From: Candidatus Berkelbacteria bacterium
GTDB lineage: Bacteria > Patescibacteriota > UBA1384 > JACPKC01
Length of the DNA stretch: 64,000 bases
Reading direction: 5' to 3'
NCBI GenBank assembly: GCA_016187225.1
Contig: JACPKC010000006.1
Span: 25,051 to 89,050 of the forward strand
The translations under genes were made by a program, and so were the position numbers. Shown here piece by piece: positions 11,160-64,000 of the stretch. The notes under the pieces are model-generated. The model saw only the letters and a list, made by a program, of their open reading frames with translations. It had not been told where the DNA came from and did no database searches. Positions within the stretch are counted from its first letter, which is position 1, and every line of letters starts with the position of its first letter.

Positions 11160-11241
11160 GCGTCAAGTTCGTATTCAGTCTAGCGTTTAGAATCTTGTTT
11201 TTCCAGTCAAATCTTGCTACCTTTAGACCCGTTACATTTAA

Positions 11242-11318: not shown

Positions 11319-11328
11319 AGCCGAATGT

Positions 11329-11666: not shown

Positions 11667-11764
11667 TTTTTGCCATGAGTATACTATCCCACACGTCAAA
11701 TGATAGCGTCAATTCGGGGTAGATTCTTATAGGTTGAGGGTGTCGACTCCGCTAGAATGTCAGC

Positions 11765-12688: not shown

Positions 12689-13132
12689 TAAAACCCCCGA
12701 AAAAGGGGGTTAAGCGCTGAAGTTCGGTAACTAGCGGCGCAACAACCAATAGTCAAGCGTCGCAAGCCAGATACCGATGGGCATGAGGAGGTAACTGATT
12801 GCAATGATCAACACCGCCACTGCCCAATGCACATGAAAGGTTTGGGTTTGGGCGACCCAACGCCAACGTTCCGACAGGCGCATTGCCTTAATTAAGACGT
12901 AGATCATACCAACGACAACCAATATAGTTATCGTATGGATTCTGGCAATGCCAGTAATCTCGCCAATGATCAAAGCAAAAAAAACTTGTCACAATAAAAA
13001 ACATAATGTTCTCCTTTTAAGTTTCAAGATCAGAAAGAGTATACACGAAGTCATTGACATTGAGACGATGTTGCCTCTATGATGCCAGGTTCCAATCAAG
13101 GGTTGGAAAATTTTAGAAGGGAATGATGTCAA

Positions 13133-13720
13133 GTGGGTTCTTTTAAAAATCAGCAAAATGGAAATGTGATCGCGGCGGCGAAAGCAGGCATTGTCTGCCT
13201 TTATGGAGTGTTCGACAACCAGCTCCGCAATTTTACCGAGATGGCTGGGTATCGGGATTATCTACGCGAATGCGCCGCAATCGTCGTGCGCGAAACAATC
13301 CCAATCGTGTATCTGGCGGGCGGGCACACGAACCCAAAGAGCAATTTCTCGGAAGCGAAATCGGTGGAGCGATACTTTCGAGATCATCTCGCACGCAATA
13401 AACCAGAGAACCAAATCAAAATCGAGCTTGAGGAGCGAAGTGTGAATACTCCACAAAATATTCACTTCTCGCTCACGCGGATACGGCTCGAATATCCGCA
13501 TCTTCGAGAGGTGCACATCTTTACCGATCGATGCCGCAAACTAAAAGGCATGGCGCTGGCGCATCACCTGTGCTTCGGGTTTCGGCACACTGTGCATGGC
13601 GTGCCGCGCATCGACACCCACCCAAACAGTGTCTGGTGGAAGCAGGCGATTCAGGCCTTCTGTTATTACTTTTTCTTCGAAAACATCCTGCGCGACATTG
13701 ATCGCGAGAAAAGGAGATGA
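13133..13720 (+). CDS. Hypothetical protein, possibly DUF218/YdcF-like
   Basis: A 195-aa ORF that ends in TGA-TAA. Similarity to DUF218 is weak and judged by eye only. Confidence 0.3.
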   Translation: MGSFKNQQNGNVIAAAKAGIVCLYGVFDNQLRNFTEMAGYRDYLRECAAIVVRETIPIVYLAGGHTNPKSNFSEAKSVERYFRDHLARNKPENQIKIELEERSVNTPQNIHFSLTRIRLEYPHLREVHIFTDRCRKLKGMALAHHLCFGFRHTVHGVPRIDTHPNSVWWKQAIQAFCYYFFFENILRDIDREKRR

Positions 13721-49175: not shown

Positions 49176-49259
49176 TGGTGCCGAGGGTGGGATTCGAACC
49201 CACAAGCCTTGCGGCGCAGGATTTTAAGTCCTGTGCGTATACCGTTCCGCCACCCCGGC
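49176..49259 (-). tRNA. tRNA-Leu (anticodon TAA), type II with long variable arm, CCA encoded
   Basis: Manual fold. The acceptor is GCCGGGG/CCUCGGC and the anticodon loop is CUUAAAA. There is a 13-nt variable arm, and the T-arm is GUGGG-UUCGAAU-CCCAC. Confidence 0.85.
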
Positions 49260-49289
49260 CAAGTTGGCCAAAGTTTAACAAAAAATTTC

Positions 49290-50306
49290 CTAGGCCGCCA
49301 CAGGAGTAGGTTGGCCAAGACGCAAAGGAAGAGTCAACAATGACGGCGCAACATGCACGATTTGCCAGCCCAAAGAAGAACGTAAAAACTTGCCCGAGAA
49401 CGAAAAGCCAGCCGCCTTGCGAATTCCACCACCACCAAACAAATTTGCGAGAGCGGCAACGTTAACGGCATCATCTTCGGTCCGCACCGAGGCTTTAATT
49501 CGGCCATTGGGCAGTTCGCACAAAAGAATCGTTGCCCGCGCTTCAGGCACGCAGTTAATCAGATTCACGCAACCGGCCAGGTCTTCGTGATAAGCATTGC
49601 AAGTCGCTAGATCTTCTTCAGTGATAATTGAAGTGACAATTTTAAGACTTGGATGATACTTAATTCGTGAGAGCGCCACCCCCCAAAGCCGCAAAGCCGG
49701 CACGGACTTAAAGCTCGCAACGTTCGCGTTGATTAGATCCAAACGCGCGCCGCGCGCCATGAGTTCTGCGGCCTGACTTAACACAATTGGCGAGGTATTA
49801 GAATGCTTGAACCCGCCGGTATCGTTGTAAAGCCCGGTGAGCAGACAAGTGGCGATGTCGGCATCCAAATTAATATCAAGCGCTTTAATTAGCGGAAAAA
49901 TCAATTCGGCGGCGGATGAAGCGTTGCTGTCGACGTAATTGAGCGAGGCTAATTTATGCAAGTCGTTGCGTTGGTGATGATCGATGTTGATGATTCTTTG
50001 ACGAAAACGGGTAAACTCGCGAATCCGATGCGCGAGGCCGGTGCGTTTAAGATCGCCGCAATCGATAATCACGATTCGATCGTAACTTCCAAGTAAGCAA
50101 TCGCGTTGAATGAGATTCACACCGGGCAAAAAACGAAAAGGATGCGGGATCTCATCCACACAAGTAAGGGTCACGTTTTTACCCAGACGTCGCAGAGTAT
50201 GACCAAGCGCTAGAAGACTGCCTGCGGCATCGCCATCGGCTTGCTCGTGGGTGATCAACAACAAGCGTTCAGCCGCACGAAGAGTGTTGGAAACTAGAGA
50301 GATCAT
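49290..50306 (-). CDS. DHH-family phosphoesterase (NrnA-like)
   Basis: DHH motifs (HEQADGDA..., IDHHQ) with a DHHA1-like C-terminus. Confidence 0.75.
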   Translation of the reverse strand: MISLVSNTLRAAERLLLITHEQADGDAAGSLLALGHTLRRLGKNVTLTCVDEIPHPFRFLPGVNLIQRDCLLGSYDRIVIIDCGDLKRTGLAHRIREFTRFRQRIINIDHHQRNDLHKLASLNYVDSNASSAAELIFPLIKALDINLDADIATCLLTGLYNDTGGFKHSNTSPIVLSQAAELMARGARLDLINANVASFKSVPALRLWGVALSRIKYHPSLKIVTSIITEEDLATCNAYHEDLAGCVNLINCVPEARATILLCELPNGRIKASVRTEDDAVNVAALANLFGGGGIRKAAGFSFSGKFLRSSLGWQIVHVAPSLLTLPLRLGQPTPVAA

Positions 50307-50387
50307 AGGATGGATTATGCAGTTATATTTTGCCAGCGCGTGGGACGGAGCGACGGAGCGATTATGAGGGTGTGGCTCACAATGAGT

Positions 50388-50866
50388 TTATGTATGTTTA
50401 AGAAGATAAATTTTGCGTTCACCCTCCGGCAAATCGCTTTTCGTCATCTTAATGTTTTCAACAGTTTCGGGCGTCTGCCCTCCGATGCGCGCGAAAGTTT
50501 CGCCTTTTTGCACGCCAACGAGAATAACAATGCGCGGCTCAATTTCGCCAATCAATTTAGCAATGGTCTGCAATTCGTCAGCTGATTCATTATCGGCGTG
50601 GACAAAGAGCAGGTCGACGTCTTCAAGACGAGCGAGTTCAGTTTCAGTGACCTGGCGTTTTTTCTGCCCCGCAACCGCGATTACCAAGGTTTCGATATGC
50701 AAATGGGCGAGATCGGGTGTAACCTCTGCAAAAACACCGGCTTTTTCATATTCACCCGGGCCATCGAGTACCAAATCGTTGATTTTGAGTTGGCCATCGA
50801 GTTCGATCGTGGCGGTTTTCGTTTTGAGGCGGCATTTTGAATCACCAGTGACACTGATCTGCATAG
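50388..50866 (-). CDS. Hypothetical protein (about 158 aa)
   Basis: The start was chosen at the ATG with RBS AAAGGA (MQISVTGDSK...). Weak resemblance to small metal-dependent hydrolase-like proteins, not confirmed. Confidence 0.35.
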
Positions 50867-50935
50867 CTATCCTTTCATGGAATATTTCAAAATATCGCAT
50901 TGTTGGCGCAAGGTAAAGAGTTAGGTGGTGAAAAT

Positions 50936-50978
50936 AAAAAGGCCCGGGCATTCAAACGATGCTCACGGGCCTTTTTTC
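50936..50978. terminator. Bidirectional rho-independent terminator at the core/high-GC-island junction
   Basis: The sequence aaaaaggcccgg...ccgggccttttttc has a GC stem with A-runs and T-runs on both sides. Confidence 0.65.
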
Positions 50979-51330
50979 ACCGACGCGGTTGAACGAGGTC
51001 GAAGACCCCGTTGCCGGGGTCCTCGGCGCCTCCCCACTCTTCATCGGGCGGCCATTCACGGCCGACCCAACGAAGAATTGGAGGCGCAAAGATTAGAATC
51101 ATAAGCAGTAAAAAACTGCTTATGATCTGTTCCAGCGTCAATCGCGTCACCTCCTTCGCTGGGTTCGATTTTGATCTTCGAAAAGATCAAGCCCAGCGAG
51201 CAGGTTCCCTCTAACCCACTCCGGATTCAGGAGAGGGCGGTACTTCTAATCAAAGAAACACTGCCCCAATCCGGAGTGGATGAGAGGGGAGGAGCTTGGG
51301 AGCTCCTCATTGACTTGCATTGGTCTATCT

Positions 51331-51454
51331 ACAATAATAGATACACCAATGCAGACACCCCGACCACCAGCAATATAATTGCGATAGCCAGGGCAAAGAT
51401 GAGAGTGCGAAATGACAATTGCTCGTCATACTCGACCCTCTTTTTCTTTTCCAT
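51331..51454 (-). CDS. 41-aa hydrophobic micropeptide (MEKKKRVEYDEQLSFRTLIFALAIAIILLVVGVSALVYLLL)
   Basis: Preceded by the conserved repeated leader ...ATCGCGAGAGGAGGTGAAAA-ATG with a perfect SD. The gene is below the track cutoff. Confidence 0.4.
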
Positions 51455-51607
51455 TTTTCACCTCCTCTCGCGATGATTAATTACGCGACGGGATTTCCTC
51501 GGGAGTGGCATCAGACTCTCCCGAGGTGAAGGAGTCGCATTAATAACCGTGAGAGAAGCCCGACCCCGTTCGACTCGCTCTGCGAGTTCGCTCGGGGTCG
51601 GAAAAAA

Positions 51608-52240
51608 TCACCATGGCCAGTATTTCGCCCGCTTCTGACTCTTCATCAGAAGCGGGCGACTGGGCGCCCAACCACACTCCTTACTGCCCATGGGGCATAG
51701 GGTGTAGTGGGCACCCGAGCCGCAGGCGCACTCGGCCGCCTGGGCCAGAGCCTCGAGAACTTCAGGTCGGTTTCTGAAGTTCCCGAGAACTTCAGGTCGG
51801 TCGAGTTGGCGAACCTCGACGGGTCCGCTGATCGCCTCGAAAAAAAATTCGAGGTAGACCGATTCCCGCTGGCTAAGCGGGTCAGTCACCCCCTCGTACT
51901 GAAGGGTCCAACCGGCCACGCCTTGCAAGGCAACGAGCCTCGCGCCGGAGGTCGAGGAGGTCCAGGCGAAGGACGTGACGTCCTCCTCCAGATACCCCCT
52001 CCAACCAGAGTGCTCCCCAGGCACTCGATGGGCGACGGGAGCGGTCGGAGGCATTACCTCCCGCCCGCCCAAAGAATTTTCCGCCATATAGACGAGCCCC
52101 TCGCGGGGTGCCGCCTCGGGTTCGCAGTCCTCCCCCCGTGGCATTTGGTTGGTTAGCCCGAAGGCCAACGAAACCAAATTTTCCCACGAGGTTTCCCCCG
52201 CGAAAATGTTTTGCTGGGTGGCGCTGGTGAGGGTCGTCAT
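51608..52240 (-). CDS. Hypothetical protein (210 aa) with an internal 19-bp tandem duplication
   Basis: An RBS GGGAGGG sits upstream of the ATG. The duplication ccgagaacttcaggtcggt x2 (51758-51810) encodes RPEVLGNFRNRPEVLE. Confidence 0.5.
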   Translation of the reverse strand: MTTLTSATQQNIFAGETSWENLVSLAFGLTNQMPRGEDCEPEAAPREGLVYMAENSLGGREVMPPTAPVAHRVPGEHSGWRGYLEEDVTSFAWTSSTSGARLVALQGVAGWTLQYEGVTDPLSQRESVYLEFFFEAISGPVEVRQLDRPEVLGNFRNRPEVLEALAQAAECACGSGAHYTLCPMGSKECGWAPSRPLLMKSQKRAKYWPW

Positions 52241-52482
52241 GTTGACGCCCTCCCTTCTTGCCCATTTTTCGATGGGCGGATCGTGGGTTTTTAACGTGTT
52301 TTACCACACGGATGACAAAGCTAACTCATCCCCATTGGGCATTAGTTAGCAGGGCATCACCCTGCTGCTATTTTAGGACCCGAGCACAGAGTCCTCGCTC
52401 TTCACTTCGATCCTCGTCGGATTGACGAAAAGCGAAGAAAGAGCCCTGCCTCACCGGTCGAAACCGACGAAGCAGGATGGGA

Positions 52483-52860
52483 TCAGTCGTCGGGCTGGCG
52501 ACGCGCGTCTGCCCCGAGTTCATCGAACTCGAGAACTAGACGTCTGACCCGTCGGAAACGAACAAACCGGTAGTACCGGCCGTTCACCTCCCAATCCGAT
52601 TCCTCCGGGTGCGCCACGATCTCGGCTTCCGACCAGAGTGGTCGAAGTCCCAGATCGACCATTCGGGCGAGAACAGAGAGCGGGACGACGGTAATCACAT
52701 CGTCATATCCACCCTCGCGGACTCGTCGCACGATCGTCTCGGCATTGTCGAACGGGCGCGAATCGCGCTCAACCCTCACATCCGCCCCAAACAACCGGCG
52801 CAAAGCGCCGAGCTGGACGGGATTCATCCCGTGCCGGCTGATCCAAAGGATTCGTTTCAT
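52483..52860 (-). CDS. Hypothetical protein (about 125 aa; start MKRILWISRHG...)
   Basis: An RBS GGAAAGGAGGGGG sits upstream of the internal ATG at 52860. The longer track ORF extends upstream without an RBS. Confidence 0.45.
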   Translation of the reverse strand: MKRILWISRHGMNPVQLGALRRLFGADVRVERDSRPFDNAETIVRRVREGGYDDVITVVPLSVLARMVDLGLRPLWSEAEIVAHPEESDWEVNGRYYRFVRFRRVRRLVLEFDELGADARRQPDD

Positions 52861-52877
52861 CGAATCCCCCTCCTTTC

Positions 52878-53066
52878 CTAGTTGATCCCGACGGTCTGCC
52901 CCGAGTATTGCGCGGCGATATACTGCGCATCCTCGAAATCGACCGGCTCGGACAAAATTTGGAACTCGCCCGGGTTTCGCGGGTCGGCAAACTCGGTCCA
53001 CAGCACCAGATAATTCCGGTCCGTGGTCGGCTGTCCTGACTCCAGCTCAACGATATGGATGGCCAT
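52878..53066 (-). CDS. Hypothetical 62-aa acidic protein
   Basis: It is preceded by the conserved repeated leader ...ATCGCGAGAGGAGGTGATCAC-ATG. Confidence 0.45.
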   Translation of the reverse strand: MAIHIVELESGQPTTDRNYLVLWTEFADPRNPGEFQILSEPVDFEDAQYIAAQYSGQTVGIN

Positions 53067-53195
53067 GTGATCACCTCCTCTCGCGATAATTGATTACGCA
53101 ACAACCCTTAAGTCGCGCGCTGATCGATAACCGTGAGAGAAGCCCGACCCCACAATCCACCGAAGCGAACGTGGGGTCGGGAAAAACAACTACTC
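53063..53195 (-). promoter_or_regulatory. Repeated intergenic module: terminator-like hairpin (cccgacccc...ggggtcggg), a conserved cttctctcacggttat box, and the leader gcgtaatNaatNatcgcgagaggaggtg-ATG. A second copy lies at 51455..51612.
   Basis: Two copies have the same order of conserved blocks and a variable spacer. Each directly precedes a minus-strand small gene. Confidence 0.6.
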
Positions 53196-53429
53196 GTCGA
53201 CCGGAAAGACGAAATACTGGAATACGCTGAAACTAGTTGCCGCGGCAACCGTTCGCGCATCCTCCAATGCTTCATCCACCGTATCGTGCGTGCGAGTCAG
53301 AAAACAAACGTGCCCGTCGTAGCGATAAAGTTTTGCGCCCAACCGCTCGTACTGAACAACATCGTCAACTGGCTCGCAGTAGTTGTTCTCGACAAAGCCA
53401 CCGCGGTATTTCATTTTTTTCTCCTCCAT
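53190..53429 (-). CDS. Hypothetical 79-aa protein
   Basis: An RBS GGAGGAGAAAAAAATG. It lies downstream of the 53564..54151 gene in the same orientation. Confidence 0.4.
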   Translation of the reverse strand: MEEKKMKYRGGFVENNYCEPVDDVVQYERLGAKLYRYDGHVCFLTRTHDTVDEALEDARTVAAATSFSVFQYFVFPVDE

Positions 53430-53563
53430 TCTTTTGATGGGGCAGTCGCTATCAGCGAGATGTCCATCAAAGTTCAGAGGCGCGGTGGCTTAAAAAACTG
53501 TTGGCCAGCCTTCCGAGCGGCTGGCAAAAAAAGTGAACCTCGCTCGGACGAGGGAGATGAGGG

Positions 53564-54151
53564 CTAGATTTGCGGCATGCGCCGCTCATCTAGCCACTCC
53601 CACTCGCTGGGGAGTGAGTCCCTCTCGGGGTAGGGGGTGGTATCGTCCCACCCCTGATTCTGCCACGCCGCCGTGTCGGCCCGCCGCTTGACGCGGCCGG
53701 TCATGAGGGCCTCGTCCTCCGGGGCCGAACCGGAGGATATCAGTCCCCCCTGGTAACCCCGCCACATCTGGTGGCGGAGATACTTGTCCCCCGCCAGGAT
53801 GGGTCCAAGCGAGGAATAGCACCAGGGATGCCGCGAGAGATACTCTCGCAGGAACCCCTCGAGTCCGACCTCGAACTCCAGGCGCCGAAGCGCCCGGCTC
53901 GCCGTCGCCCGCAGTTCGTGCGGGAGGGACTCCTCCTCCCCCACAAAGGGGAAGTAGGGTCCGTGTGCCGTATCTGGCACCTCCCCCAGGGCCCCAGACA
54001 ATTTGTAGTACGGGACCTGGTTGACCCGCACTCCCAGGATGGCCGGCGAGGCGATCCATCCTTGGTGCTTTCCGTCCACCTGGACGGAGTAGAGCCCGGC
54101 GACCTCGCCGGACTCTACCAGGGTCAGGGTGCTGTTCTGGGTGCTCTGCAT
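53564..54151 (-). CDS. Hypothetical 195-aa protein (MQSTQNSTLTLVESGE...) sharing a 5' module with the gene at 58185..58625
   Basis: The start is at the ATG inside the conserved roughly 135-bp promoter/leader repeat (RBS GGAGGTG). The first roughly 10 codons are homologous to the paralogous cassette. Confidence 0.5.
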   Translation of the reverse strand: MQSTQNSTLTLVESGEVAGLYSVQVDGKHQGWIASPAILGVRVNQVPYYKLSGALGEVPDTAHGPYFPFVGEEESLPHELRATASRALRRLEFEVGLEGFLREYLSRHPWCYSSLGPILAGDKYLRHQMWRGYQGGLISSGSAPEDEALMTGRVKRRADTAAWQNQGWDDTTPYPERDSLPSEWEWLDERRMPQI

Positions 54152-54266
54152 GGCAGGCACACCTCCATTCTTAAACTCCCGCTTGCGCGGGGCGATGGAA
54201 GGACTATAAATAGTCAGCCCGTCGCCCAACATAAACGAGTTATTTCCGCTCATCCTCGATTCCTCA
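54130..54266 (-). promoter_or_regulatory. Repeated promoter/leader module, about 135 bp, copy 1; copy 2 lies at 58614..58749
   Basis: The two copies are near-identical, for example gtgctctgcatggcaggcac...cccgcttgcgcggggcgatggaaggactataaatagtcagccc...cataaacgag...catcctcgattcctcatcggtttcga. The module contains a GCAA-tetraloop hairpin cccgc-gcaa-gcggg in the leader and the start codon of the downstream gene. Confidence 0.7.
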
Positions 54267-54408
54267 TCGGTTTCGATGAAAGTCCGAGGTAACTCAAAAA
54301 AAACTTTTGGCCAGCCGCGATGCGGCGGTGAAGCTTGATTAGCATCAAACCTCGCCGCCACAACCCGAGTTTGCAGAATCCCTGTTAATTTCCTATACTT
54401 GAGTTATT

Positions 54409-54648
54409 ATGCCTAATGTCTTCATTCCCAAAGAATATGAACGGACTCGCGAGCTCGTCGCCATCCCTAAAAAGAAGTATGAGGCTTATCTTGAGGCGCA
54501 ACGCGCTCAAGCACGACCAGCCAAACATGCCCAATCCAAACGAGATCAAGAGCTGACGGAGGTACTGGAAATTATCCGCAGAGGTAAAGCCGACTACCGC
54601 GCCGGTAGAATTCGGACTGTCCAATCGCTTTCGGAACTCATGGAGTAA
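54409..54648 (+). CDS. Type II antitoxin (RelB/ParD/Phd-like)
   Basis: A 79-aa protein immediately upstream of a RelE/ParE-like toxin gene, with a 5-nt gap. A sigma70-like promoter TTGCAG-17-TATACT lies upstream. Confidence 0.6.
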   Translation: MPNVFIPKEYERTRELVAIPKKKYEAYLEAQRAQARPAKHAQSKRDQELTEVLEIIRRGKADYRAGRIRTVQSLSELME

Positions 54649-54653
54649 ATCCA

Positions 54654-54926
54654 GTGCGTCGACCGATCGCAACTATCGATGTGACGCCAGATTTTGAAAA
54701 GGCTTTTCGTCGCCTGCCAGTTCGTATCCAGCGTTTGGCCACCAAGAAAACAAGTTGGTTTCGCGATAATGCACACGATTCCAGGCTAAAAACTCATAAG
54801 TTGAGCGGCCAACTCAACGAACACTGGTCGTTTTCCGTAAATCGCGAGTACCGGATTCTATTTGAGTTCACGAGTAATACCACCGCACTCTTCCACTCAA
54901 TTGGCACCCACGCCATCTATCGTTGA
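54654..54926 (+). CDS. Type II toxin, RelE/ParE superfamily
   Basis: A 90-aa protein with the motif HKLSGQLNEHWSFSVNREYRILFEF, characteristic of RelE/ParE-fold toxins. Confidence 0.65.
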   Translation: MRRPIATIDVTPDFEKAFRRLPVRIQRLATKKTSWFRDNAHDSRLKTHKLSGQLNEHWSFSVNREYRILFEFTSNTTALFHSIGTHAIYR

Positions 54927-55294
54927 AGTGCGTCTGCAACCCGTAAGACCGATCCGGATCAATCCCCAGGCGCCAAAACTCGATGTGAGTGGAGAGATGC
55001 TTCCATCGCTGGTCACAACTATTCGTTGCGTCAAGTAAAAAGATCCCTTCCTCCGATTTTAGGGGAAGAGAAGAAGCGGGGCGGGAGGCAAGCGTGCCTG
55101 CGACCGCCCCAAGCTTTGGCCGGGTTCCGATCGATTGATCGGAAGCGTTAAGACGGGAGCAATCCTTCGGGGTGTTCGCTCAACCGTCTTGCCGGCCTAC
55201 CCGCAAAAGTTGCGGGTAGGGTTGGATTCTCCGCCGTCGGCGGATTCTTACTCTCGCGCCACCAACCAAGGCGCGGGAGGGCAGTGTTTATGCT

Positions 55295-55510
55295 AGACCA
55301 GTCTCGCAAAGAGACAGTCGGCTTCATGCTCGACGTCCTCTCCCGAGTCTGATCTAGACTCATTTCCACAGCAGAGACACTGTCTGTACTCAAACAGTGT
55401 GCCTCCACTGGAGAAATTGTGCAGTTCGTTGTTTTTGATCCACTGCACAATTTCTCTTTTCAGCTCGGGATCACTTTCGATCGCCCGAGCAAGATTGGAG
55501 AAAAGCATTC
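55295..55510 (-). CDS. Small 71-aa Cys-containing protein (…YRQCLCCGNESR…)
   Basis: An RBS GGGAGGAGGGAGAAAGA-ATG. It contains a perfect 12-bp inverted repeat within the CDS. Confidence 0.35.
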
Positions 55511-56194
55511 TTTCTCCCTCCTCCCACCCTCGCGGGTAGGATGCCTGGTTGGCCGCGGGTGCGGGCCAGGGCGGGCAGATTCCCAATTCTTCCGTGATCG
55601 TGGGTTTCGACCACGCTCTGCCAGTCCGTGGAGGACTAGCATCCCGTTCTTTGAACGAGGAGCGTCCCCACGGAGCCTGGTGGCTCGGAAGAATTGGGTT
55701 TCCCCTTGTTCGTCCACTCACCAACTGCCAGCGGTGAGAGACAGGGCGGTTCGCCCCTCCAAGCGCGCGAAGACTAACTGGTCGAAGCGCGCGCTAGAGC
55801 CGAGTTTTGGTTACTTGCTTACTCGGGTGCAAGGTTGTCTTTATTCTCTGGGCGTTGCTGCCGGCAGACACATTTTTTTTTACGAGAGTGTCCACTCGTT
55901 CCAATTATTACTAATTGGATCGTTCCCTGCGCTGACCGGGCAAGGAGACCGGACTGATTTATGTTTTAGAAGCAACGCCAGTGAACGTTGCTCAACCGCG
56001 CGCGTGCCTTCATTAAAGAGGCCGCTTCTCACGGATAACTATGGTCACCCCTTAAAACCGCTCCGACAGTTTTAAGGGGATCTTTTACGCCACCCGACGT
56101 TGCCATTATGGTTTAGGCAACTCTCCCCGCCGACCTCAACGCTACAACGCGCTTAGGGCCAACGGTTGACGGGTGGGAGCCTGTCGTGGCACCC

Positions 56195-56602
56195 CTATGC
56201 GAGAAGGGGCAGAAGCACCTGCCGACGCTCCTGGTCAAATGTGTCCTTTAATAGACACCGTTTCGACCAGGCTTTAGATGGTTCAGCATTCAGGTACTGA
56301 ACCATCTGTCTGTACGCCATCTTGTCCGACGACGCACAGAACGCCCGTGCTCCCCCCTCGAGCTGACGGCCAACCTCCTCCTGGAGGTCCCAGATTGACG
56401 AAAGATTTTCCCATCCTTCGCCTCCAAGACTCTCGTCCAGGAAGAGCACGGCGTACTGGCGTTCAGCCAGCGCCTGCCGCGTCTCGGCCGCCGTCGTAGG
56501 AGCCACGACGTCCACGCCAACCGGCAGGACAGCAAGGAGCCGAGAGAGGAACATCTCTCGCCACTCCTCGCAGTCCTCGATCAGCAGGACGCTTTGGTTC
56601 AT
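56195..56602 (-). CDS. Standalone response-regulator receiver-like domain protein (degenerate)
   Basis: LLIEDCEE...VLFLDESL places acidic residues at CheY-like positions. The RBS is GGAGGTGAAAAG-ATG. A perfect 11-bp inverted repeat lies within the CDS. Confidence 0.45.
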   Translation of the reverse strand: MNQSVLLIEDCEEWREMFLSRLLAVLPVGVDVVAPTTAAETRQALAERQYAVLFLDESLGGEGWENLSSIWDLQEEVGRQLEGGARAFCASSDKMAYRQMVQYLNAEPSKAWSKRCLLKDTFDQERRQVLLPLLA

Positions 56603-56929
56603 CTTTTCACCTCCTTCGTTGGACTCAATTTTGATTTACCGATCAAATCCAACGAGGAAATGAATGCGCTCCTTAAGAACAAATCTGCTGCAAAAGTTCA
56701 ACCATGAATCAAACTCCAGTCACTATGGCTCTAATGACGTGCTCGCCCATCATCTTAACGACCTAACCCATTTCCGCACCGCGATCGCCCGCTGGCTGAC
56801 GAAACAAGTTGACTGATCAAGCCTTTCGAGACTTCGTTGACGATCTCCGATTCACGATTTTATAAGTTAATAAATCATGAACCCGAGTCGATCTCCCTCT
56901 ACCTGCTTGCACAGGCGAGGGAGAAAAAT

Positions 56930-57226
56930 CTACATCGCTGCCCGAACCCGGTCGGCAGCTAGTCGCTCTCTACGCCACCTCTCCTCGAGGTACTCGGCGT
57001 ACCAAGCGAGCAACTGCTCGGTGGTGCCGTCGAGAGCGGCGTTAACCGCCTCGAGCTGGGCGGCTTCTTTCTCCAGGTCGAGGCCGTCGAGCGGCTCAAG
57101 CTGGAGAAAGTACGCCGCTTCACGAATGGCGGCGTCCTTGGCGCGGCGCACCACGGCCGGAACCATGGCGTTCTTGGCCTCCGCCTCGGCGTACCGGCCC
57201 TCCCGGTTGTCGCGTTCGGTCGCCAT
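56930..57226 (-). CDS. Hypothetical 98-aa acidic/helical protein
   Basis: An RBS GGAAGGGAGG sits upstream of the ATG. Confidence 0.4.
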   Translation of the reverse strand: MATERDNREGRYAEAEAKNAMVPAVVRRAKDAAIREAAYFLQLEPLDGLDLEKEAAQLEAVNAALDGTTEQLLAWYAEYLEERWRRERLAADRVRAAM

Positions 57227-57301
57227 TTTGAGCGACCTCCCTTCCTTAATTGGTATTCAGGGAACCACCCTGCTGCTATTTTAGGACCCGAGCACAGAGT
57301 C

Positions 57302-57351
57302 CTCGCTCTTCACTTCGTCTTTCGATGAATCGAAAAGCGAAGAAAGAGCCC
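57302..57351. repeat. 50-bp repeat, left copy, flanking the vapBC cassette (ctcgctcttcacttcgtctttcgatgaatcgaaaagcgaagaaagagccc)
   Basis: It is identical 50/50 to the copy at 58098..58147. It forms an imperfect palindrome with bulges. A variant copy with a different 17-nt centre lies at 52398..52447. Copies 52358.. and 57266.. also share a 36-bp 5' extension. Confidence 0.8.
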
Positions 57352-57427
57352 GGCTCTCCGGTTGATTTGAAGATCATAGTTGGAATCAAGAGTGAAAGAT
57401 TGGTAAGATAATTGACGAAAGGAACTG

Positions 57428-57730
57428 ATGCCCAAAGTAATCAGTAAACCAAAAATCCGCGTTCCTGATGCGTACCAGGGTTATCAACGTTTGGTGGCGA
57501 TTTCGGAAACAGATTACCAGCGCCTGGTTGACAAGATGCGACCTGCCAAAACCGATCCGGCCGATCGCGCCACTGTCTGGAAAGCAGTGGAAGGCATCTG
57601 GGCTGACCGAGACGATCTTGATCCAATCCGTTATCAACGGCAATTACGGAACGAGTGGAATAAACGCGAAAAACGCCAGTATCGCTTGGGCGGGCGGGCA
57701 AAAAATTCGACGCACGCTAAGCGCTCATGA
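57428..57730 (+). CDS. vapB: VapB-like antitoxin
   Basis: A 100-aa protein that overlaps the downstream PIN toxin gene by 4 nt. Its GC is clearly lower than the surrounding island. Confidence 0.55.
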   Translation: MPKVISKPKIRVPDAYQGYQRLVAISETDYQRLVDKMRPAKTDPADRATVWKAVEGIWADRDDLDPIRYQRQLRNEWNKREKRQYRLGGRAKNSTHAKRS

Positions 57731-58092
57731 CGCTCGACACCAATATCATCATCACGCTTCTCAAAAACGAAGCGTCTTTGGTGAAATGGTTCCAGCAACT
57801 GCAGCGCGACCAGGTTATTTTCATATCCTCGATCACGCGAGCTGAACTTTTATCAGAATCAAAGTCAACCGCTAGGCAACTTGCTCGGATCGCACGATTT
57901 TTGAATTCCTTCCATTCTGTGCCACTAGATGACAAAATTGCCGATCATGTCGCAAGCTTGCGGCGCGCCTACTCTAAACTGCATGTTCCTGATGCCGCCG
58001 TGGCCGCCACTGCAATCATCATGGGCACGCCACTCGCCAGTCGCGACAAGGTATTTCGAAAGATTAAGGAACTCGATTTGATTGTGCCATAG
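57727..58092 (+). CDS. vapC: VapC PIN-domain toxin
   Basis: A PIN domain with a conserved acidic residue in MTLDTNIII near the N-terminus and conserved Asp/Glu further on, in a 121-aa protein. Confidence 0.7.
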   Translation: MTLDTNIIITLLKNEASLVKWFQQLQRDQVIFISSITRAELLSESKSTARQLARIARFLNSFHSVPLDDKIADHVASLRRAYSKLHVPDAAVAATAIIMGTPLASRDKVFRKIKELDLIVP

Positions 58093-58097
58093 GCTTT

Positions 58098-58147
58098 CTC
58101 GCTCTTCACTTCGTCTTTCGATGAATCGAAAAGCGAAGAAAGAGCCC
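58098..58147. repeat. 50-bp repeat, right copy, flanking the vapBC cassette
   Basis: See the left copy. It is an exact direct repeat. Confidence 0.8.
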
Positions 58148-58184
58148 CCCGCTCGAAATGTTTTGCGAGACGGGGGGACAACGT

Positions 58185-58625
58185 TTAGACAGGCGCCTCG
58201 AGCGGGCGCTGGACGAGGGCTTTGCGCACCTCGACCCCGACGACTTCGTAGCCGCCGAAGGCGAGGATGTCACGCCCTCGCTCATCCTGGCCGGTCACGA
58301 TCACCCGCCCGTCCTCGCCCCGCTTGAAGACCTGGCGCAGGACATGAATGCCCTGCTCGGCCAGCCCCTCGACGAGGGCGATCATGACCGGCTCGGGCCC
58401 GCCGGCCTCGACCGCCACCACCTCCCTCTCCTCGGTGGCCTCGATCATGTCGATGACCGCCTGGACGGCGGCCACCGGATCGGCGCCATAAGGCACGTCC
58501 TCGGTGACCACCTCGAGGTCGTCACCGAAGACGACCGCGAGGGCCGCTCGACGGTCCTCACTCAACGGGTGACGCATCACCCGCAGGATTACCGGGGTCA
58601 GGATGGTGTTTTCGGTGCTCTGCAT
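58185..58625 (-). CDS. Hypothetical 146-aa protein (MQSTENTILTPV...) carrying the shared 5' module
   Basis: It has the same promoter/leader/first codons as the gene at 53564..54151. Confidence 0.5.
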   Translation of the reverse strand: MQSTENTILTPVILRVMRHPLSEDRRAALAVVFGDDLEVVTEDVPYGADPVAAVQAVIDMIEATEEREVVAVEAGGPEPVMIALVEGLAEQGIHVLRQVFKRGEDGRVIVTGQDERGRDILAFGGYEVVGVEVRKALVQRPLEAPV

Positions 58626-58872
58626 GGCAGGCACCTCCTCTCATGAGCTCCCGCTTGCGCGGGGCGATGGAAGGACTATAAATAGTCAGCCCAGCGCCCA
58701 ACATAAACGAGTCAGTTCACACTCATCCTCGATTCCTCATCGGTTTCGACCCGTTCTAAACGAAGTCGAAGAATGAGAGCCCGAGGTGAGCCCCCGACCG
58801 CATTCAGCAATGGGTCAGGGTCAAGCAGTCCGGCGCAAGTAAGCTACCTGGCCGGACTGAAGTCATGAGGCG

Positions 58873-61800
58873 CTAGCGGCGGTTGAACCGCGCTTTGAGC
58901 GCCTCGATCTGGGCCTGGGCGGTGGCCGCGTCTTCGGCAGAAGGTTCTGCCGGCGCGGCTTCGCGCGCCTTAGCCCGTTTCTTGCTCTGCCCCGATCCAG
59001 CCGATTCGCTGGCGCGAACCTCCGGCTCGGGGACTTGCGGTTTGTCTTCCGGGAAGGGCGGCTCGAGCCGCACTAGCGTGAGACGGAAGGAGCCAGTGTT
59101 GACCAACTCCCTTACCTCGCTCACGTAGTACGACTTGCCCGCAACCGGCTCCGGTGAGCGGCGGTCGAGCACGAACTTGGCGTGCTTCGATCCGGCCTCC
59201 CACTGGAGTTCTCCGGTTTTGGGGTGTCGCCCCTGGCGGAACGAGAGCTTGAACCATGCACGCTGGGAGACCATCTCCTCAGCGCGCTGGTAATCAGCCT
59301 CGTACCGCTCCCGATTCCTGGCCGCCCACGCCTCGTCCGTAAGAATGACTCCCGTGAAGTCATTCCGAACGAGTGGGCAGGCGCAGTCCGTCGGGAACCA
59401 CTCGGCGGCAACAGTGCCATCGATGAAAATTTTCACCGTGGCCACCGCATCCCACCGTTTATGGGTCCCTTCCGGCCGCACCTCGGCCAGGACAGCTTCG
59501 TCGTACTGGGTCAGCCCACTGTTTGACTGGGCCCAGACCACCCGGTTGATCGGGTGGAGGTTGGTCTGGCGGCAAACCAAACGGGTTTGACCCGTCTGGT
59601 CGCCCCACTCGGTATGCTCTTCAACCATCGGGTGGGAGCAAACCGGGCAGGTACCAAGGAGCGTGCGCAGGCGATCGTTCGCCGATCGCTTCAGCTCCTC
59701 TTTCTGCCGCTTGGCGTCCTCGGCCTTCTTTTGGAGCTCGGCCGTTTTCACGGAGAGCTCCTCAAAGAGCGCGCACGTCGACACGAAGTCGTGGCGCTTA
59801 AAGGCTTCGGTCGCCTCAGTCGCAAGGCGCTCAACCTCCCTCTCCTCCTTATAGGAGAGCAAACCATCGCGCTCATAGGTCGCGATCGTTTCCTGCTCCT
59901 CCCGAATGAGGGCGAGGGCGGTCTCCGCCTCGGGGCGCTTGGTCTCGTTGGTCTGGTGGTGAGCCAGCGCCAACTCGACCCGCGCCCGGACAGTCGCGAG
60001 CAGGTCGAGCGCCTTCTTCGGCTCCGGGGTGCGGCTGTAATAGCCGTCGCTCGTCCGGAGCAAGGCGCGCGCCTGCTCGATCTTTGCCGAGAGTCCCTCC
60101 GACTCGTACCAGCTGTCTTTCCCCGCTTCACGCGAGGTCAGACCGTAAGCCTGGTACTCGTCGAGGTTCACCCCGGCAAGCAGTTGGGCGACCGCGTCGG
60201 CTTCAGCTTGCGCTTCGGCCACGTAGCGGTCGCGATTTCTGCGTTCGTCTTCCTCGGCATCGAGCTTGGCCTTGGCTTTGATGGCCTCGGCCTGGCTCGT
60301 CTGCGCCTCCTCGCAAGTGCGGTACCATTTCTGGTACCAGCTCGCGTAGTAGGCGCGGAACGCCGGGTAGGCGAACGCCCCGGTCACGGCGTCATAGATC
60401 TCGGGTTCGGCGACCGCGGGGAGCGGCTCCAAACCCTTGACCACGAGTGTCGTGTCGGGGTGGTTGGTCGTGAACGCCTGCCAGGCCAACTCCAGCCGTT
60501 GCGCCTCGATCTGCTCGCGCAGGGTCGAGACGTCGGTGCCAGAGATGGCGGTGTAGCCCTTGTCCTGCAGCTTGAGCGTGTAGCTCGCGCCGCTCGGAAT
60601 GAGATGCTCCACCACTGCCTGGTCGGCGTTCTGGATGGTCGCCACCGACACCTGGATGGTGACGGTCTGCTTCTTCTCGCTCGAGTAGTACGACGCGCTG
60701 TCGTACTTATACTCGACGTTGCAGACCTCGCCGCCGATCAGCACGGTGTCGGGCGCCTGCTCGCGGATGTACGTTGCTTCCTCACCGGAAACAAACGTCG
60801 CCCGCGCCAGGCCAAAGTCGATGCCCTCGATCGCCGGATCGTCCATCCGGTAGATCTCGCCGAGTCGCTCGGCATAGATCTTGGCCGCCTCACTTTGAGT
60901 GAGCGGCCCCCGAACGGCGCCCCCGGACTTGGCTTGAAGTTCGGTCAGCTCGGCATTGACTGCCTGGCCAACTTCCCCCAGCCAAACTCGGGCAAACTGG
61001 TCGGCCAAGGCTTTGGTCGCCTCGGCGTTTCTCTGGGCGGCCACCACCGTCGTTGCGACTTCGGTGCCGTTGAACACCAGCACCTCGTCACAGACGACCT
61101 CGCCTCGCTCCTCACTCCACCGATAGTTCCGGCAGAGATTGGAGGCGAGGTGAGGCGCCACCTCGGCCAGCCAAGTCGGGTCAACCGCCGAGGCATTTTT
61201 GATCAGGCGGAGCGTCATTGAACGCCCTCGCCGATCTGTAATGCCAAGGTCGAACGGTTGGCCGACCAGCCACTCGGGCAAACTCGAGCGCTTCATCAAG
61301 CAGCTCTCCTTTGCCAGCTCTCGTTCGCCGTTGCCGCCGTTCTGGTATCGACCACTATAGGAAGAGCTCTTCCTATACAAATGGTCAACCAACCCAGTCG
61401 AGCAGGCCTTGAGAGTGTCTTGCTGAGAGCCGAAGCTCCCAAACTCAACATCCCCGACCCCCCGCACGGCGTCAGCAAGCGTGGGAATCTGGGCGTAGGC
61501 ACGCTTGATGTTCATGCCCACAATCCCAGCTTCCCGCCAGTCAACCTGCTTGAGGCTCCGATCCGCCTCCCGCAGGGCCCGTTTGACCTGCTCTCTCCGG
61601 CTCTCGCGCTGTTTGCGCTTGAGGTTCTTGTTAAAAACCTCTTGCCGCGGCGCGGTGCCGAGCAGGTGCTCAATCGTGTTCTGGCCAATCAAGGCGACCA
61701 GAACCGCCAGTTGGGCAAGTAGATCGCTCTCAGTTTCCTTGACACCGAAAAACGATCGCCACTCGCCACTTCTGGCAACGATGTCGCCGGCGTCAAGGCA

Positions 61801-63108
61801 AGCCGCGATGACAATCACGTCATCCACGACTCCCCGTTGCGCCGCTTCTAGGATCATCCGGGCAGAGTGCACCTCGATCGGCAAGCGATTAATCGCATAG
61901 CCGACTTCGGTCACTTTCCCGGCCTGGTCGATGGCGCCGAGACCTTTGAGCGCCTTCTTCGCATCAGCAATGACCTGGCGGTCAAGCTGATGGAAGAACG
62001 GCAGCTCGGCTGCGTCGTACCCGGCAATGGCCAAACGGAGCACCGTCTGGTCAAGCCGGGTGCGCATGATCTCGGGCACCGGGTAGCCGGGCCGCTCGGC
62101 GCTGGGGCAGTGGTCGATGTAGACCCCTTCGCCCAAGCGGCCGGTTCGGCCTCGGCGCTGTTGGCCGCGAGCTTTGGCGATCGGCTTGAGGTACAAGCCT
62201 TCTACGCCACTGACCAGCTCGACGCGTCGTTCCATGCCGGAGTCGACAACGGCGAGCCGGCGCCCGGGACTCGGCACTAGCGTACGGCCGGTTTCCAAGG
62301 CGTTGGTTGAAACCACCACCTTGGGCCGGTCGTACCGCTTGTAGGCGCGGTCTTTTTCCTCGCGCTTGAGCTTCCCGTAAAACGGGATCAGCTCGGCATC
62401 GAGGCTTTGGAGCCGCGCAACAGTCGCCACGATCTCGGCCTCGCCCGGCTGGAAGCAGAGGACGTCAAAGCCCTCAGCGACCAACTTGGCAATGTCAGCC
62501 TCGATCGTGGCACCAGCCGGTCGGTCGACGATTGGGAACTGCCTCCCCGGCACCTTGAACACCGGCGCGTTCCCGCGCTTGCGCGCGAGCTCGTCCGAGG
62601 CCAAAGTAGCCGAGAGGACCACGATCTTTTTAAAGACCGAGTTCCCTTCCTGGAGGTGCTTCCACGCCCAGGCCTCCAGAGTGGATTGGTTCGTATTCCA
62701 CTCGTGGAGCTCGTCGATGATGAGGATGTCGAACCGGTTGTGACCGGCCAACTCCCTCACCAGCGCGAGACCGTCGGTGCAGAACAGAATTGACGTCTCC
62801 GCCGAATCCTGCCTGCCCTTGCCGGTCCGGTAGCCGACGGTCGTGCCAAACGGCACGCCCATGAGCTGGGCGACATACTCGCTCGTGCCGATGACCGTTT
62901 CGATCAACGGCTCGGTTACAAGTACGCTGTTACCCAGCTCATGGTACCACTGGGGCACCATTGTCGACTTGCCGGAGCCGGTTTCGGCCTCGACAATCAT
63001 GTAGGGCGCGGCGCATCCAATGATCGCGGCTTTGAAGGCCTCGATCGGGAGCGCATCACGCCCGTTGCTGGTCGGGGAGCTGTTATTCACCATGCCATTC
63101 TTGGTCAT
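58873..63108 (-). CDS. HrpA-like DEAH/RHA-family ATP-dependent helicase (1411 aa) with a long C-terminal extension containing a Cys4 zinc-finger-like motif
   Basis: Motif I ETGSGKST, motif II DELHE, motif III SAT and motif VI QRRGRTGR. An HA2-like region (ELPFFHQLD...LGAID) follows. The C-terminus is a coiled coil with CPVCSHP...C...CAC and an Ala/Glu/Lys-rich tail. Confidence 0.75.
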   Translation of the reverse strand: MTKNGMVNNSSPTSNGRDALPIEAFKAAIIGCAAPYMIVEAETGSGKSTMVPQWYHELGNSVLVTEPLIETVIGTSEYVAQLMGVPFGTTVGYRTGKGRQDSAETSILFCTDGLALVRELAGHNRFDILIIDELHEWNTNQSTLEAWAWKHLQEGNSVFKKIVVLSATLASDELARKRGNAPVFKVPGRQFPIVDRPAGATIEADIAKLVAEGFDVLCFQPGEAEIVATVARLQSLDAELIPFYGKLKREEKDRAYKRYDRPKVVVSTNALETGRTLVPSPGRRLAVVDSGMERRVELVSGVEGLYLKPIAKARGQQRRGRTGRLGEGVYIDHCPSAERPGYPVPEIMRTRLDQTVLRLAIAGYDAAELPFFHQLDRQVIADAKKALKGLGAIDQAGKVTEVGYAINRLPIEVHSARMILEAAQRGVVDDVIVIAACLDAGDIVARSGEWRSFFGVKETESDLLAQLAVLVALIGQNTIEHLLGTAPRQEVFNKNLKRKQRESRREQVKRALREADRSLKQVDWREAGIVGMNIKRAYAQIPTLADAVRGVGDVEFGSFGSQQDTLKACSTGLVDHLYRKSSSYSGRYQNGGNGERELAKESCLMKRSSLPEWLVGQPFDLGITDRRGRSMTLRLIKNASAVDPTWLAEVAPHLASNLCRNYRWSEERGEVVCDEVLVFNGTEVATTVVAAQRNAEATKALADQFARVWLGEVGQAVNAELTELQAKSGGAVRGPLTQSEAAKIYAERLGEIYRMDDPAIEGIDFGLARATFVSGEEATYIREQAPDTVLIGGEVCNVEYKYDSASYYSSEKKQTVTIQVSVATIQNADQAVVEHLIPSGASYTLKLQDKGYTAISGTDVSTLREQIEAQRLELAWQAFTTNHPDTTLVVKGLEPLPAVAEPEIYDAVTGAFAYPAFRAYYASWYQKWYRTCEEAQTSQAEAIKAKAKLDAEEDERRNRDRYVAEAQAEADAVAQLLAGVNLDEYQAYGLTSREAGKDSWYESEGLSAKIEQARALLRTSDGYYSRTPEPKKALDLLATVRARVELALAHHQTNETKRPEAETALALIREEQETIATYERDGLLSYKEEREVERLATEATEAFKRHDFVSTCALFEELSVKTAELQKKAEDAKRQKEELKRSANDRLRTLLGTCPVCSHPMVEEHTEWGDQTGQTRLVCRQTNLHPINRVVWAQSNSGLTQYDEAVLAEVRPEGTHKRWDAVATVKIFIDGTVAAEWFPTDCACPLVRNDFTGVILTDEAWAARNRERYEADYQRAEEMVSQRAWFKLSFRQGRHPKTGELQWEAGSKHAKFVLDRRSPEPVAGKSYYVSEVRELVNTGSFRLTLVRLEPPFPEDKPQVPEPEVRASESAGSGQSKKRAKAREAAPAEPSAEDAATAQAQIEALKARFNRR

Positions 63109-63147
63109 GGTAAATTTCCCTTTCGGGAAAGCCGTCTAGCCTTTCGG

Positions 63148-63879
63148 CTAGGCGGCCAACAGCTCCTCTCGGAGATCGGCCGCCGCCCAAGCGACTTGCG
63201 CTCGGGCGCGACCCTGCTCGAACGGCGACCTTGCAGCCAGCCGTTCGGCGAGGGCCGACTCAAGGGAGTCGGCGGCGTCATGCCACCGACTCACGCTCGA
63301 GTCCCGGGCGACCAGGAGCAGAAGCTCCGGTCGCCGGGAGGCGACCACGGTTTTGCGCCAGAGCCCCTGGCACACGGGGGCAGAAGCGGCCAACGCCTCA
63401 CGGCGAGCCGCTTCTGCCTTTTGTTGGCGCGCCCACTCGCCTTTGGGCAGGGCGCGGCAATTCTGCCGCTCCTGCTTGCGGGCGCGGCGAGCCTCCCGGG
63501 CGGCGCGGTCGCGGGCCACCTTGGCCAGCACCGCCGCCCGGGTCACCTGACCGCGGACAGGTTGGGCTTTCGCCCGTTCCTGCCGCCGGTTGGCCCGCCG
63601 GCGCGCCGTCCGCCACGACCGCCCCTCGCTGGGGACGGCATGGAAAGTTTTTCTGCCACAAAGTGGCTGCGGCACCCAGAGCTGGTCGCCCATCAGAGCG
63701 GCCAGCTCCCCGGCCGCGAGGCGAATGCCCCGCGACCGAAAAAACTTCTTCGCCCGGGTGCGAGAGACGAACTCTCGACGGCCCGGGCAGGTCATGACAC
63801 CATTTTCCCGGGTGATGCCAAACCCGGTGGCGAGCACGAAGCTCGCCAGGAAAACGAGAACCAGCCCAATAATGAGCAT
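63148..63879 (-). CDS. Hypothetical membrane-anchored Arg-rich protein (243 aa)
   Basis: An RBS GGAAGGAGGAAAACGAG-ATG. It has an N-terminal TM helix and a highly basic (R/A/E-rich) remainder. Confidence 0.45.
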   Translation of the reverse strand: MLIIGLVLVFLASFVLATGFGITRENGVMTCPGRREFVSRTRAKKFFRSRGIRLAAGELAALMGDQLWVPQPLCGRKTFHAVPSEGRSWRTARRRANRRQERAKAQPVRGQVTRAAVLAKVARDRAAREARRARKQERQNCRALPKGEWARQQKAEAARREALAASAPVCQGLWRKTVVASRRPELLLLVARDSSVSRWHDAADSLESALAERLAARSPFEQGRARAQVAWAAADLREELLAA

Positions 63880-64000
63880 CTCGTTTTCCTCCTTCCCCCG
63901 CTTTGCGGGTTTTTCAACCGCACGGGGGATTCACCGGCTGGCGAATGCCCACCCCGAACAGCGACGCCTTTCACGTCTCCCTCTGCGCCACATTTTTCCT

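Follow-up and report, generated by a model that had tools for sequence, protein, structure and literature searches.

How a small toxin-antitoxin (TA) gene pair that carries no mobility gene comes to lie between two identical hairpin-forming repeats is the question raised by a locus in a metagenome-assembled genome (MAG) of Candidatus Berkelbacteria (locus tags HYW32_). The window, that is, the whole stretch of DNA analysed here, comprises 64,000 nt of a 161-kb contig. Host DNA of about 48% GC reaches to about 50.95 kb, and from there to the window end extends an island of about 60% GC whose native genes are all on the minus strand. Within this island a vapBC pair is bracketed by two copies of a 50-nt imperfect palindrome, here termed H. 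A first-pass annotation of the same DNA had read these repeats as a site-specific capture site for small TA cassettes, reminiscent of integron attC sites, and this integron-like reading is not supported. The explanation favoured here, with a probability of roughly 0.55, is that the bracketed vapBC pair reflects a homology-anchored insertion, or an insertion with long target duplication, at a hairpin module native to the island.

Exactly two copies of the 50-mer (CTCGCTCTTCACTTCGTCTTTCGATGAATCGAAAAGCGAAGAAAGAGCCC) are present, at 57302-57351 and 58098-58147, and they are 100% identical, as had been reported in the first pass; in the shuffle control 0 of 100 shuffles matched, even with 3 mismatches allowed. 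The earlier observation of a third copy that shares the arms and has no cassette also stands, but its limits are 52394-52446 rather than 52398-52447 and its differing centre measures 20 nt rather than 17 nt. The repeats and the extensions beside them are the following.

57302-57351, minus strand: H copy 1, 50-nt imperfect palindrome, between the Y1-side extension and the vapB promoter side
58098-58147, minus strand: H copy 2, the identical 50-mer, 5 nt past the vapC stop and abutting T2, the terminator-like hairpin of gene X1
52394-52446, minus strand: H copy 3, a 53-nt variant without insert, with the same arms and a different 20-nt apical part
57249-57301, minus strand: extension at site 1, with small hairpins h2 and h3, leading to the ribosome-binding site of gene Y1
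52341-52393, minus strand: extension at site 3, with h2 and h3, upstream of gene Y3

The left arm (16 nt) and right arm (17 nt) of copy 3 are identical to those of copies 1 and 2. The 36-nt extension that the first pass had assigned to copies 1 and 3 matches exactly at 52358-52393 and 57266-57301, and the similarity continues for 17 nt more, to 52341 and 57249. No further copy of H was found in the window's 51 kb of host DNA or in the loci L002-L005, giving three copies in total. A covariance model of H plus its extension (R1) returned these three known copies together with weak matches (E about 0.005) in L003 and L004 that were distrusted. The exact arm pattern GCTCTTCACTTCG-N10-30-CGAAGAAAGAGC had no match in public genome, metagenome and viral contig collections, and neither H nor its module matched any Rfam 15 family, at the gathering score or at E up to 5.

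Folding of the single-stranded form bears out the earlier description of H as a bulged imperfect palindrome, the DNA fold z-scores of -4.3 and -3.2 lying well beyond those of shuffled controls. On the minus strand H is a hairpin of about 20 bp, laid out as a 6-7-bp stem, a bulge of 1-2 nt, a 5-bp stem and a variable top. Its RNA folds range from -20.9 to -25.7 kcal/mol, setting aside the plus strand of variant 3 (-19.8 kcal/mol), and in both variants the minus strand is the more stable one (variant 1, -22.2 versus -20.9 kcal/mol; variant 3, -25.7 versus -19.8 kcal/mol), because several pairs are G-U there and C-A on the plus strand. The differences between the variants within H are all apical, and three one-sided U-A/U-G changes preserve pairing.

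The DNA between the two identical copies is of a different character from the island around it. It comprises the following features.

57352-58097, plus strand: inserted segment, 746 bp, of host-like composition by GC and tetranucleotides
57428-57730, plus strand: putative VapB-type antitoxin, 100 aa
57727-58092, plus strand: VapC toxin with a PIN domain, 121 aa (Pfam PF01850, E=9.3e-18)
57352-57365, minus strand: GC-rich stretch, possible terminator remnant (T1), resembling the 3' half and loop of the terminator-like hairpin T3

The segment carries only two open reading frames (ORFs), the vapB-like frame of 100 aa and vapC, and no mobility gene. The stop of vapB and the start of vapC overlap as ATGA. 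The VapB-like product matches no Pfam or NCBIfam family, and NCBIfam VapC models match the toxin below their curated cut-offs; a C-terminal W...R.EW in the VapB-like product can be seen by eye in the small ORFs that precede VapC relatives as well. With a PIN toxin and a small overlapping upstream ORF, the gene pair has the makeup of a VapBC type II TA system. Its GC content is 0.49 and its GC content at third codon positions (GC3) 0.52-0.55, against 0.59-0.68 and 0.68-0.87 in the island genes, and its tetranucleotide profile correlates at 0.73 with the host and at 0.30 with the island. The host-like composition claimed in the first pass is thus confirmed, and it supports a secondary insertion of host-like DNA into the GC-rich island. 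No near-identical VapC was found elsewhere among 5.8 billion proteins, the best relatives being 50-51% identical.

The occupied junctions can be written as extension-H-GGCTCTCC on the left (in a longer probe form, extension-H-GGCTCTCCGG) and as GGCTTT-H-CCCGCTCG on the right. The right junction falls exactly within the 2-3 nt that separate H from the next hairpin. On the left, the 14 nt directly right of H copy 1 (57352-57365, GGCTCTCCGGTTGA) are GC-rich, and the AT-rich vapB promoter region comes next. The alignment of site 1 with site 3 reaches 57362/52458 (BLAST), and in an anchored alignment test of this T3-like stretch 6 of 400 random island 25-mers scored as well (p about 0.015). H copy 1 may therefore carry a remnant of its own terminator, which would make the cassette boundary less clean than had been proposed; of the claim that the repeats enclose just vapBC and its promoter region, the two-ORF content stands and the clean boundary is in doubt.

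A native role for H is suggested by what surrounds it at both sites.

58145-58177, minus strand: T2, GC-rich terminator-like hairpin, -19.9 kcal/mol, beginning 7 nt past the X1 stop
52444-52477, minus strand: T3, terminator-like hairpin from the terminator scan, -21.6 kcal/mol, beginning 5 nt past the X3 stop
58185-58625, minus strand: X1, island gene of 146 aa (HYW32_01705), directly preceding T2-H
52483-52860, minus strand: X3, island gene of 125 aa (HYW32_01655), directly preceding T3-H
56930-57226, minus strand: Y1, island gene of 98 aa that follows the site 1 module
51608-52240, minus strand: Y3, island gene that follows the site 3 module

At both sites the minus-strand order is gene X, the T hairpin, H, a 7-bp hairpin, a 5-bp hairpin and the ribosome-binding site of gene Y. 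T2 and T3 each combine a GC-rich hairpin with a U-tract, as expected of intrinsic terminators on this strand, and their U-rich tail CUCUUUCUUCGCUUUUCG (also CTCTTTCTTCGCTTTTCG) is the 5' arm of H. The genes upstream, X1 and X3, have a weak N-terminal similarity (BLASTP E=0.002; 11 of 2000 shuffles scored as well), and the genes downstream, Y1 and Y3, are unrelated. The first pass had allowed that its cassette reading would fail if the repeats were ordinary terminators duplicated with their genes, and this is what was found in part, in that two H copies follow weakly paralogous genes, right after terminator hairpins. Long hairpins are frequent between the genes of this island and of the related helicase islands in L003 and L004; in the latter the intergenic order is a terminator and then a hairpin of about 50 nt directly before the next ribosome-binding site. 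It is concluded that H is a native structured element of the island's intergenic regions, part of a transcript-boundary module, and we infer that this module acts in termination, perhaps also in RNA processing or stabilisation. Two other candidates were rejected: H as an intrinsic terminator, there being no U-tract after it on either strand, and a sigma-70 promoter in the extension (TAAAAT), which has no acceptable -35 box and was not flagged by the scan.

In the operons of phages and mobile elements, intercistronic hairpins are well known, for example the RNase III sites of the T7 early region, which are about 20 bp long with a small bulge. By analogy, H may be of this general kind, since it too is repeated between cistrons of a one-strand cluster and has a conserved lower stem and a variable top; on the side of the differences, H has no Rfam match and the island gave no phage-family matches.

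The repeats that flank related TA pairs bear on whether the duplication of H is peculiar to this site. When VapC aligned with its two nearest relatives was used as the query, 26 metagenome loci were obtained, and these, together with L006 and with L005 (reached through the VapC relative P0123), formed the set for comparing flanking repeats, each locus being compared with itself. Direct repeats of 26-97 nt bracket vapBC relatives at several loci. The principal cases in this material, with positions in the locus where given, are as follows.

L014: 47-nt repeats containing a GC-rich hairpin, 87% identical
L020: 43-nt palindrome repeat, 95% identical
L024, 1091-1859: repeat of at least 52 nt, the 5' coding end (first approximately 22 codons) of a yebC-like gene
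L025, 729-1368: repeat consisting of the first 26 nt of the next gene, both copies identical, with an intact gene after the insert
L026 (L026/L027), 2595-4647: repeat consisting of the first 34 nt of a next gene of 400 aa, bracketing 2 kb with three TA pairs
L005, 972-4084: 96-nt direct repeat in four copies, 75-82% identical, between small cassettes
L032, 187-2002: three TA cassettes, one about every 540-610 bp, with a 79-nt imperfect palindrome between them

An intact copy of the adjacent gene is retained in each of L024, L025 and L026; the one in L025 encodes 110 aa and is DksA/TraR-like by eye. No sequence relationship links the flanking repeats of different loci, which indicates local targets rather than a cassette-borne site, and a repeat is often a part of the gene next to it. 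The coding repeats can also be compared by codon: the copies in L024 differ by 7 synonymous and 1 non-synonymous changes across 22 codons, and in L005 synonymous differences are at least as numerous as non-synonymous ones in 5 of 6 pairwise comparisons. The mainly synonymous differences in L024 suggest that one repeat copy probably arrived with donor DNA from another lineage.

Three of the loci are arrays or repeat families in their own right. The cassettes of L005 contain an AbiEii pair, a 57-aa ORF with a PIN toxin, and an 86-aa ORF with DUF2283 beside a 215-aa ORF. Read from the minus strand, every repeat copy encodes the same C-terminal peptide (PFFQGTxLGDFFY..LLFGAYELALKW), and the copies differ mostly at synonymous positions; the array seems to have arisen by serial insertion at the 3' end of a single gene. 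An interpretation of these repeats as attC-like hairpins was ruled out, as they are coding fragments with no consensus palindrome. The cassettes of L032 are a VapBC pair with a disrupted toxin, a HicAB pair and a RelE-type toxin like that at 54654-54926 of the window; the palindrome between them has conserved arms and a variable centre, an integron-like layout, and within the 4.7 kb examined there was no integrase and no canonical R-box pairing. At L019 (6-6186) a 55-nt intergenic repeat occurs in five copies, beside rny, HU and vapC. The repeat has two hairpins, one of them fixed (CTCCCTTT..AAAGGGAG) and the other with a stem that varies in sequence between copies but remains paired. It resembles an element of the repetitive extragenic palindromic (REP) type. 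These repeats were ruled out as cassette sites, the same 55-nt element adjoining housekeeping genes.

Under the favoured explanation, vapBC DNA of host-like composition would have entered an intergenic region of the island after the hairpin module existed, and H would have come to stand on both flanks through its use as a homology anchor, or through its duplication as a target, during the insertion. The selfish pair would in this way bring along a short stretch of its neighbour, which would serve as a homology anchor on one side. Homology-facilitated illegitimate recombination, as it occurs in naturally transformable bacteria, works with one short anchor and leaves the recipient and donor copies of that anchor as direct repeats. 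Such a process fits the mainly synonymous repeat differences in L024 and L005; the H copies in the window are identical, so that a donor and a recipient copy are indistinguishable.

Insertion with long target duplication was described for restriction-modification (RM) gene complexes (Nobusato et al. 2000, Gene 259:99), which have been found inserted without mobility genes, with target duplications from 45-47 bp to about 400 bp (PMC2853133; PMC3874152). The 45-47-bp cases come from Haemophilus, Thermus and Xylella, some of them overlapping the 3' ends of genes, and the cases with long target duplication are mostly in naturally competent species (PMC2853133). By the criteria of Furuta, Abe and Kobayashi (2010), such an insertion consists of a complete addiction-type unit of less than 20 kb that lacks a mobility gene, bounded by a direct repeat of more than 30 bp; the vapBC segment is such a unit, and its direct repeat measures 50 bp at 100% identity. 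It shares with the RM insertions a compact post-segregational-killing unit without a mobility gene, a gene-poor location at or near a gene end, direct repeats that reproduce the local target over tens of bp, and an insert whose composition differs from its surroundings. It differs from them in that the unit is a type II TA pair, the duplicated target coincides with a stem-loop, the host belongs to the candidate phyla radiation (CPR; Patescibacteria) and the target lies inside another foreign island. Furthermore, the published cases are defined by a genome with an empty site, whereas the window offers only a paralogous cassette-free site.

Several points weigh against the favoured explanation. 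An empty allele of the exact vapBC site was not found and a de novo duplication is not demonstrated, the cassette-free comparison being the paralogous site at 52394-52446 only. In the placement control, repeats bracket vapC at 8 loci against 4.9 expected, which is only moderately above chance, and among the loci with a single pair they do so in 4 of 6 against 1.4 expected; the argument therefore leans mainly on the nature and tightness of the duplications. Identical arms with a strongly diverged centre are also typical of recombination sites such as attC, and the covariation evidence is thin, there being two H variants only. H is not followed by a U-tract and its extension holds no sigma-70-like promoter, which leaves its RNA role presumptive. 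The search for H and for recombinases covered 64 kb of the genome and 2.7 kb beyond the window in L002. The T3-like stretch beside H copy 1 counts in part on the same side: it fits equally well a homology-anchored import, in which vapBC came together with a T-H piece from a related island, and two modules that existed before the insertion.

In the published treatment of RM complexes, flanking direct repeats fall into three classes, namely site-specific recombination, long target duplication and chance insertion between repeats (PMC2853133), and the three main explanations for the window map onto these classes. Under the last of them vapBC would have been inserted into, or would have replaced, DNA between two pre-existing tandem modules (X1-T2-H-extension ... 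T1-H-extension-Y1), and the H copies would be old paralogues, perhaps homogenised by gene conversion, rather than products of the insertion. This possibility, which corresponds to the "chance insertions between repeated sequences" of Furuta et al. (PMC2853133), draws on an island full of duplicated intergenic modules, at 87-91% identity, and on the T3-like GC-rich stretch, which suggests that H copy 1 formerly had a terminator of its own. It is nevertheless unlikely. At 88% identity the probability of 50 identical bases out of 50 is about 0.002, so that an extra recent duplication or conversion would be needed; the right junction falls precisely into the 2-3-nt gap that follows H before the next hairpin; and the relatives have true gene-end duplications, which are impossible as pre-existing repeats. 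If instead H were a structure-specific recombination site in the style of attC, CTX attP or the ends of IS608, a recombinase acting in trans would have captured a circular molecule of vapBC with one H. The bulged imperfect palindrome with identical arms and a centre that differs between the two variants, the duplication that spans the stem-loop to within 3 nt, and the location of H copy 2 at 5 nt past the vapC stop, just where a cassette-borne site would be, all speak for such a site, as does the L032 array with its VapBC, HicAB and RelE-type cassettes and its 79-nt palindrome. Shared with integron cassettes, including clusters of attC sites lacking integron-integrases (CALIN), are a small cassette, often a TA pair, bulged palindromes of conserved arms and variable centre, and a site just 3' of the cassette genes. 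Yet the core triplets of attC, AAC in R'' and GTT in R' (crossover G/TT), are absent from both H variants on both strands. There is one cassette only, with flanking sites 100% identical over 50 nt and no array of cassette-attC units, and the second TA pair of the island, at 54409-54926, has no H. H belongs to the terminator module of the surrounding operon, and although it is loosely similar to the folded-strand geometry of attC (two stems, an unpaired spacer and extrahelical bases), it folds better as minus-strand RNA, the transcribed strand. The relatives' flanking repeats are specific to each locus and often coding, and no near-identical vapBC copy occurs in the 5.8 billion proteins. Nor did the enzymes come to light in the 64 kb: no IntI, attI or Pc was found and no tyrosine recombinase or HUH enzyme was seen, in line with the first-pass statement that no integron integrase is visible, the tyrosine recombinase result covering the Pfam-scanned island ORFs and the eye-inspected host ORFs and thus not every ORF; within the same limits a single recombinase was found in the window, a serine recombinase truncated at its 5' end and located 53 kb from vapBC. 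A capture site of this kind is accordingly quite improbable. The same low probability attaches to the wider proposition that H and the L032 palindromes are structure-specific sites of an undescribed cassette system of Patescibacteria type with no integron integrase in cis, and to the idea that such a system would capture small TA cassettes at folded hairpins or by gene-end anchoring.

Two further explanations are very improbable. H might be the vapBC cassette's own terminator, which arrived with the cassette, copy 3 then being the scar of a lost cassette; the GC content of H (0.48) is cassette-like and copy 2 begins 5 nt past the vapC stop, but no U-tract follows H on the plus strand and the G-U pairs form on the minus strand only. 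Moreover, copies 1 and 3 have 53 nt of island-side extension in common, the terminator-H arrangement follows island genes at both native sites, and the host DNA of the window holds no H. The bracketing might also be an artefact of assembly, in which vapBC and one H, from a separate molecule or locus, were threaded into the island through the shared 50-mer. The window does come from a MAG, the independent k=31 assembly of SRR12113424 breaks at repeats of at least 31 nt and cannot confirm both junctions, and the exact VapB, VapC and X1 proteins are recorded only from the NCBI contig. Their absence from the other assembly says little, in that their k=31 unitigs would be shorter than 1 kb. What that assembly does contain agrees with the window: three independent contigs match 49180-52387, 54312-57295 and 58663-64000 at 100% identity, and their ends at 52387, 57295 and 58663, that at 54312 excepted, lie where repeats of at least 31 nt predict. 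The junction of host and island is confirmed by the independent contig L007. Ordinary reads, like the final k-mers of the usual assemblers, are also longer than a 50-bp repeat, which counts against an artefact.

Short palindromes of other mobile and repetitive elements offer a further comparison. Like REP elements and bacterial interspersed mosaic elements (BIME) and like the palindromes of insertion sequences (IS) of the IS200/IS605 group, H is short, imperfect, strand-specific and intergenic, and the ends of IS608-type elements are similar hairpins in direct orientation. H differs from REP/BIME in not being dispersed in the host DNA of the window. It differs from IS200/IS605 in that no TnpA, REP-associated tyrosine transposase (RAYT) or HUH transposase was seen in the ORFs scanned or inspected, and in that the solo H keeps the same 53-nt extension at the paralogous site, unlike what precise excision would leave.

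The favoured explanation, homology-anchored insertion or insertion with long target duplication, would make this locus a TA example, in a CPR genome, of the process described for RM systems, with a stem-loop as the duplicated target. How such insertions come about has stayed unknown since that description, and the features of this locus and of its relatives together suggest a route that can be tested. If general, it would explain the gathering of TA pairs at gene ends, at terminators and in arrays in small genomes with few classical mobile elements. It also calls for caution in annotation, as a bulged palindrome on both sides of a cassette is insufficient for an integron-like call.

The second TA pair of the island presents a different picture.

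54409-54926, plus strand: second TA pair, a 79-aa ORF and a RelE/HigB-like toxin, of host-like composition, inside the minus-strand island

Neither H nor any direct repeat was found in its flanks. The independent contig L001 ends at 54312, an end for which no repeat in the window accounts. The implied branch in the assembly graph, at about 54341/54342, lies in the middle of the loop of an 18-bp hairpin that precedes the pair by 67 nt. This branch (window 54312-54372) may represent an occupied/empty polymorphism of the second pair.

The island itself has few recognisable genes. A 1411-aa HrpA-like helicase is the sole native gene with a family match (Pfam, PHROGs, NCBIfam); the remaining native genes match no Pfam, PHROGs or NCBIfam family, and there are no phage-family matches in the island. 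Close relatives of the helicase were absent from viral contigs and were found once in genome contigs (L008, Taylorbacteria), a locus without repeats comparable to those of the window island. A GC-rich (about 60-65%) module around an HrpA-like helicase of 1350-1410 aa is seen in the window at 50950-64000, in L004 at 7800-13400, in L003 and in L008, accompanied by ORFan genes and long conserved intergenic hairpins. Its hosts, all Patescibacteria genomes, differ strongly in GC (about 38% for L004 versus 48% for the window), and these modules look like a mobile island family of unknown type.

Within the window island, intergenic or 5'-end modules are duplicated at 86-100% identity, as at the following pairs of positions.

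54102-54276 and 58579-58749: duplicated island module
51458-51489 and 53071-53102: duplicated island module
51543-51567 and 53127-53151: duplicated island module
51147-51175 and 56607-56635: duplicated island module

As part of these duplicated modules, two otherwise different island genes have the N-terminus MQST.N..LT.V in common. A 96-nt tRNA-Ser called by ARAGORN at 53708-53803 lies within an island ORF, lacks Rfam confirmation and is probably spurious.

In the host part of the window, the large serine recombinase ORF at 3179-4702 is without the first approximately 65 positions of the resolvase catalytic domain, and its 3' end overlaps a tRNA-Gly on the opposite strand (4569-4642); it may be a remnant of another integrated element. 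A cobalamin riboswitch at 2074-2200, also in the host part, scores 31.9 bits against an Rfam gathering score of 31.5.

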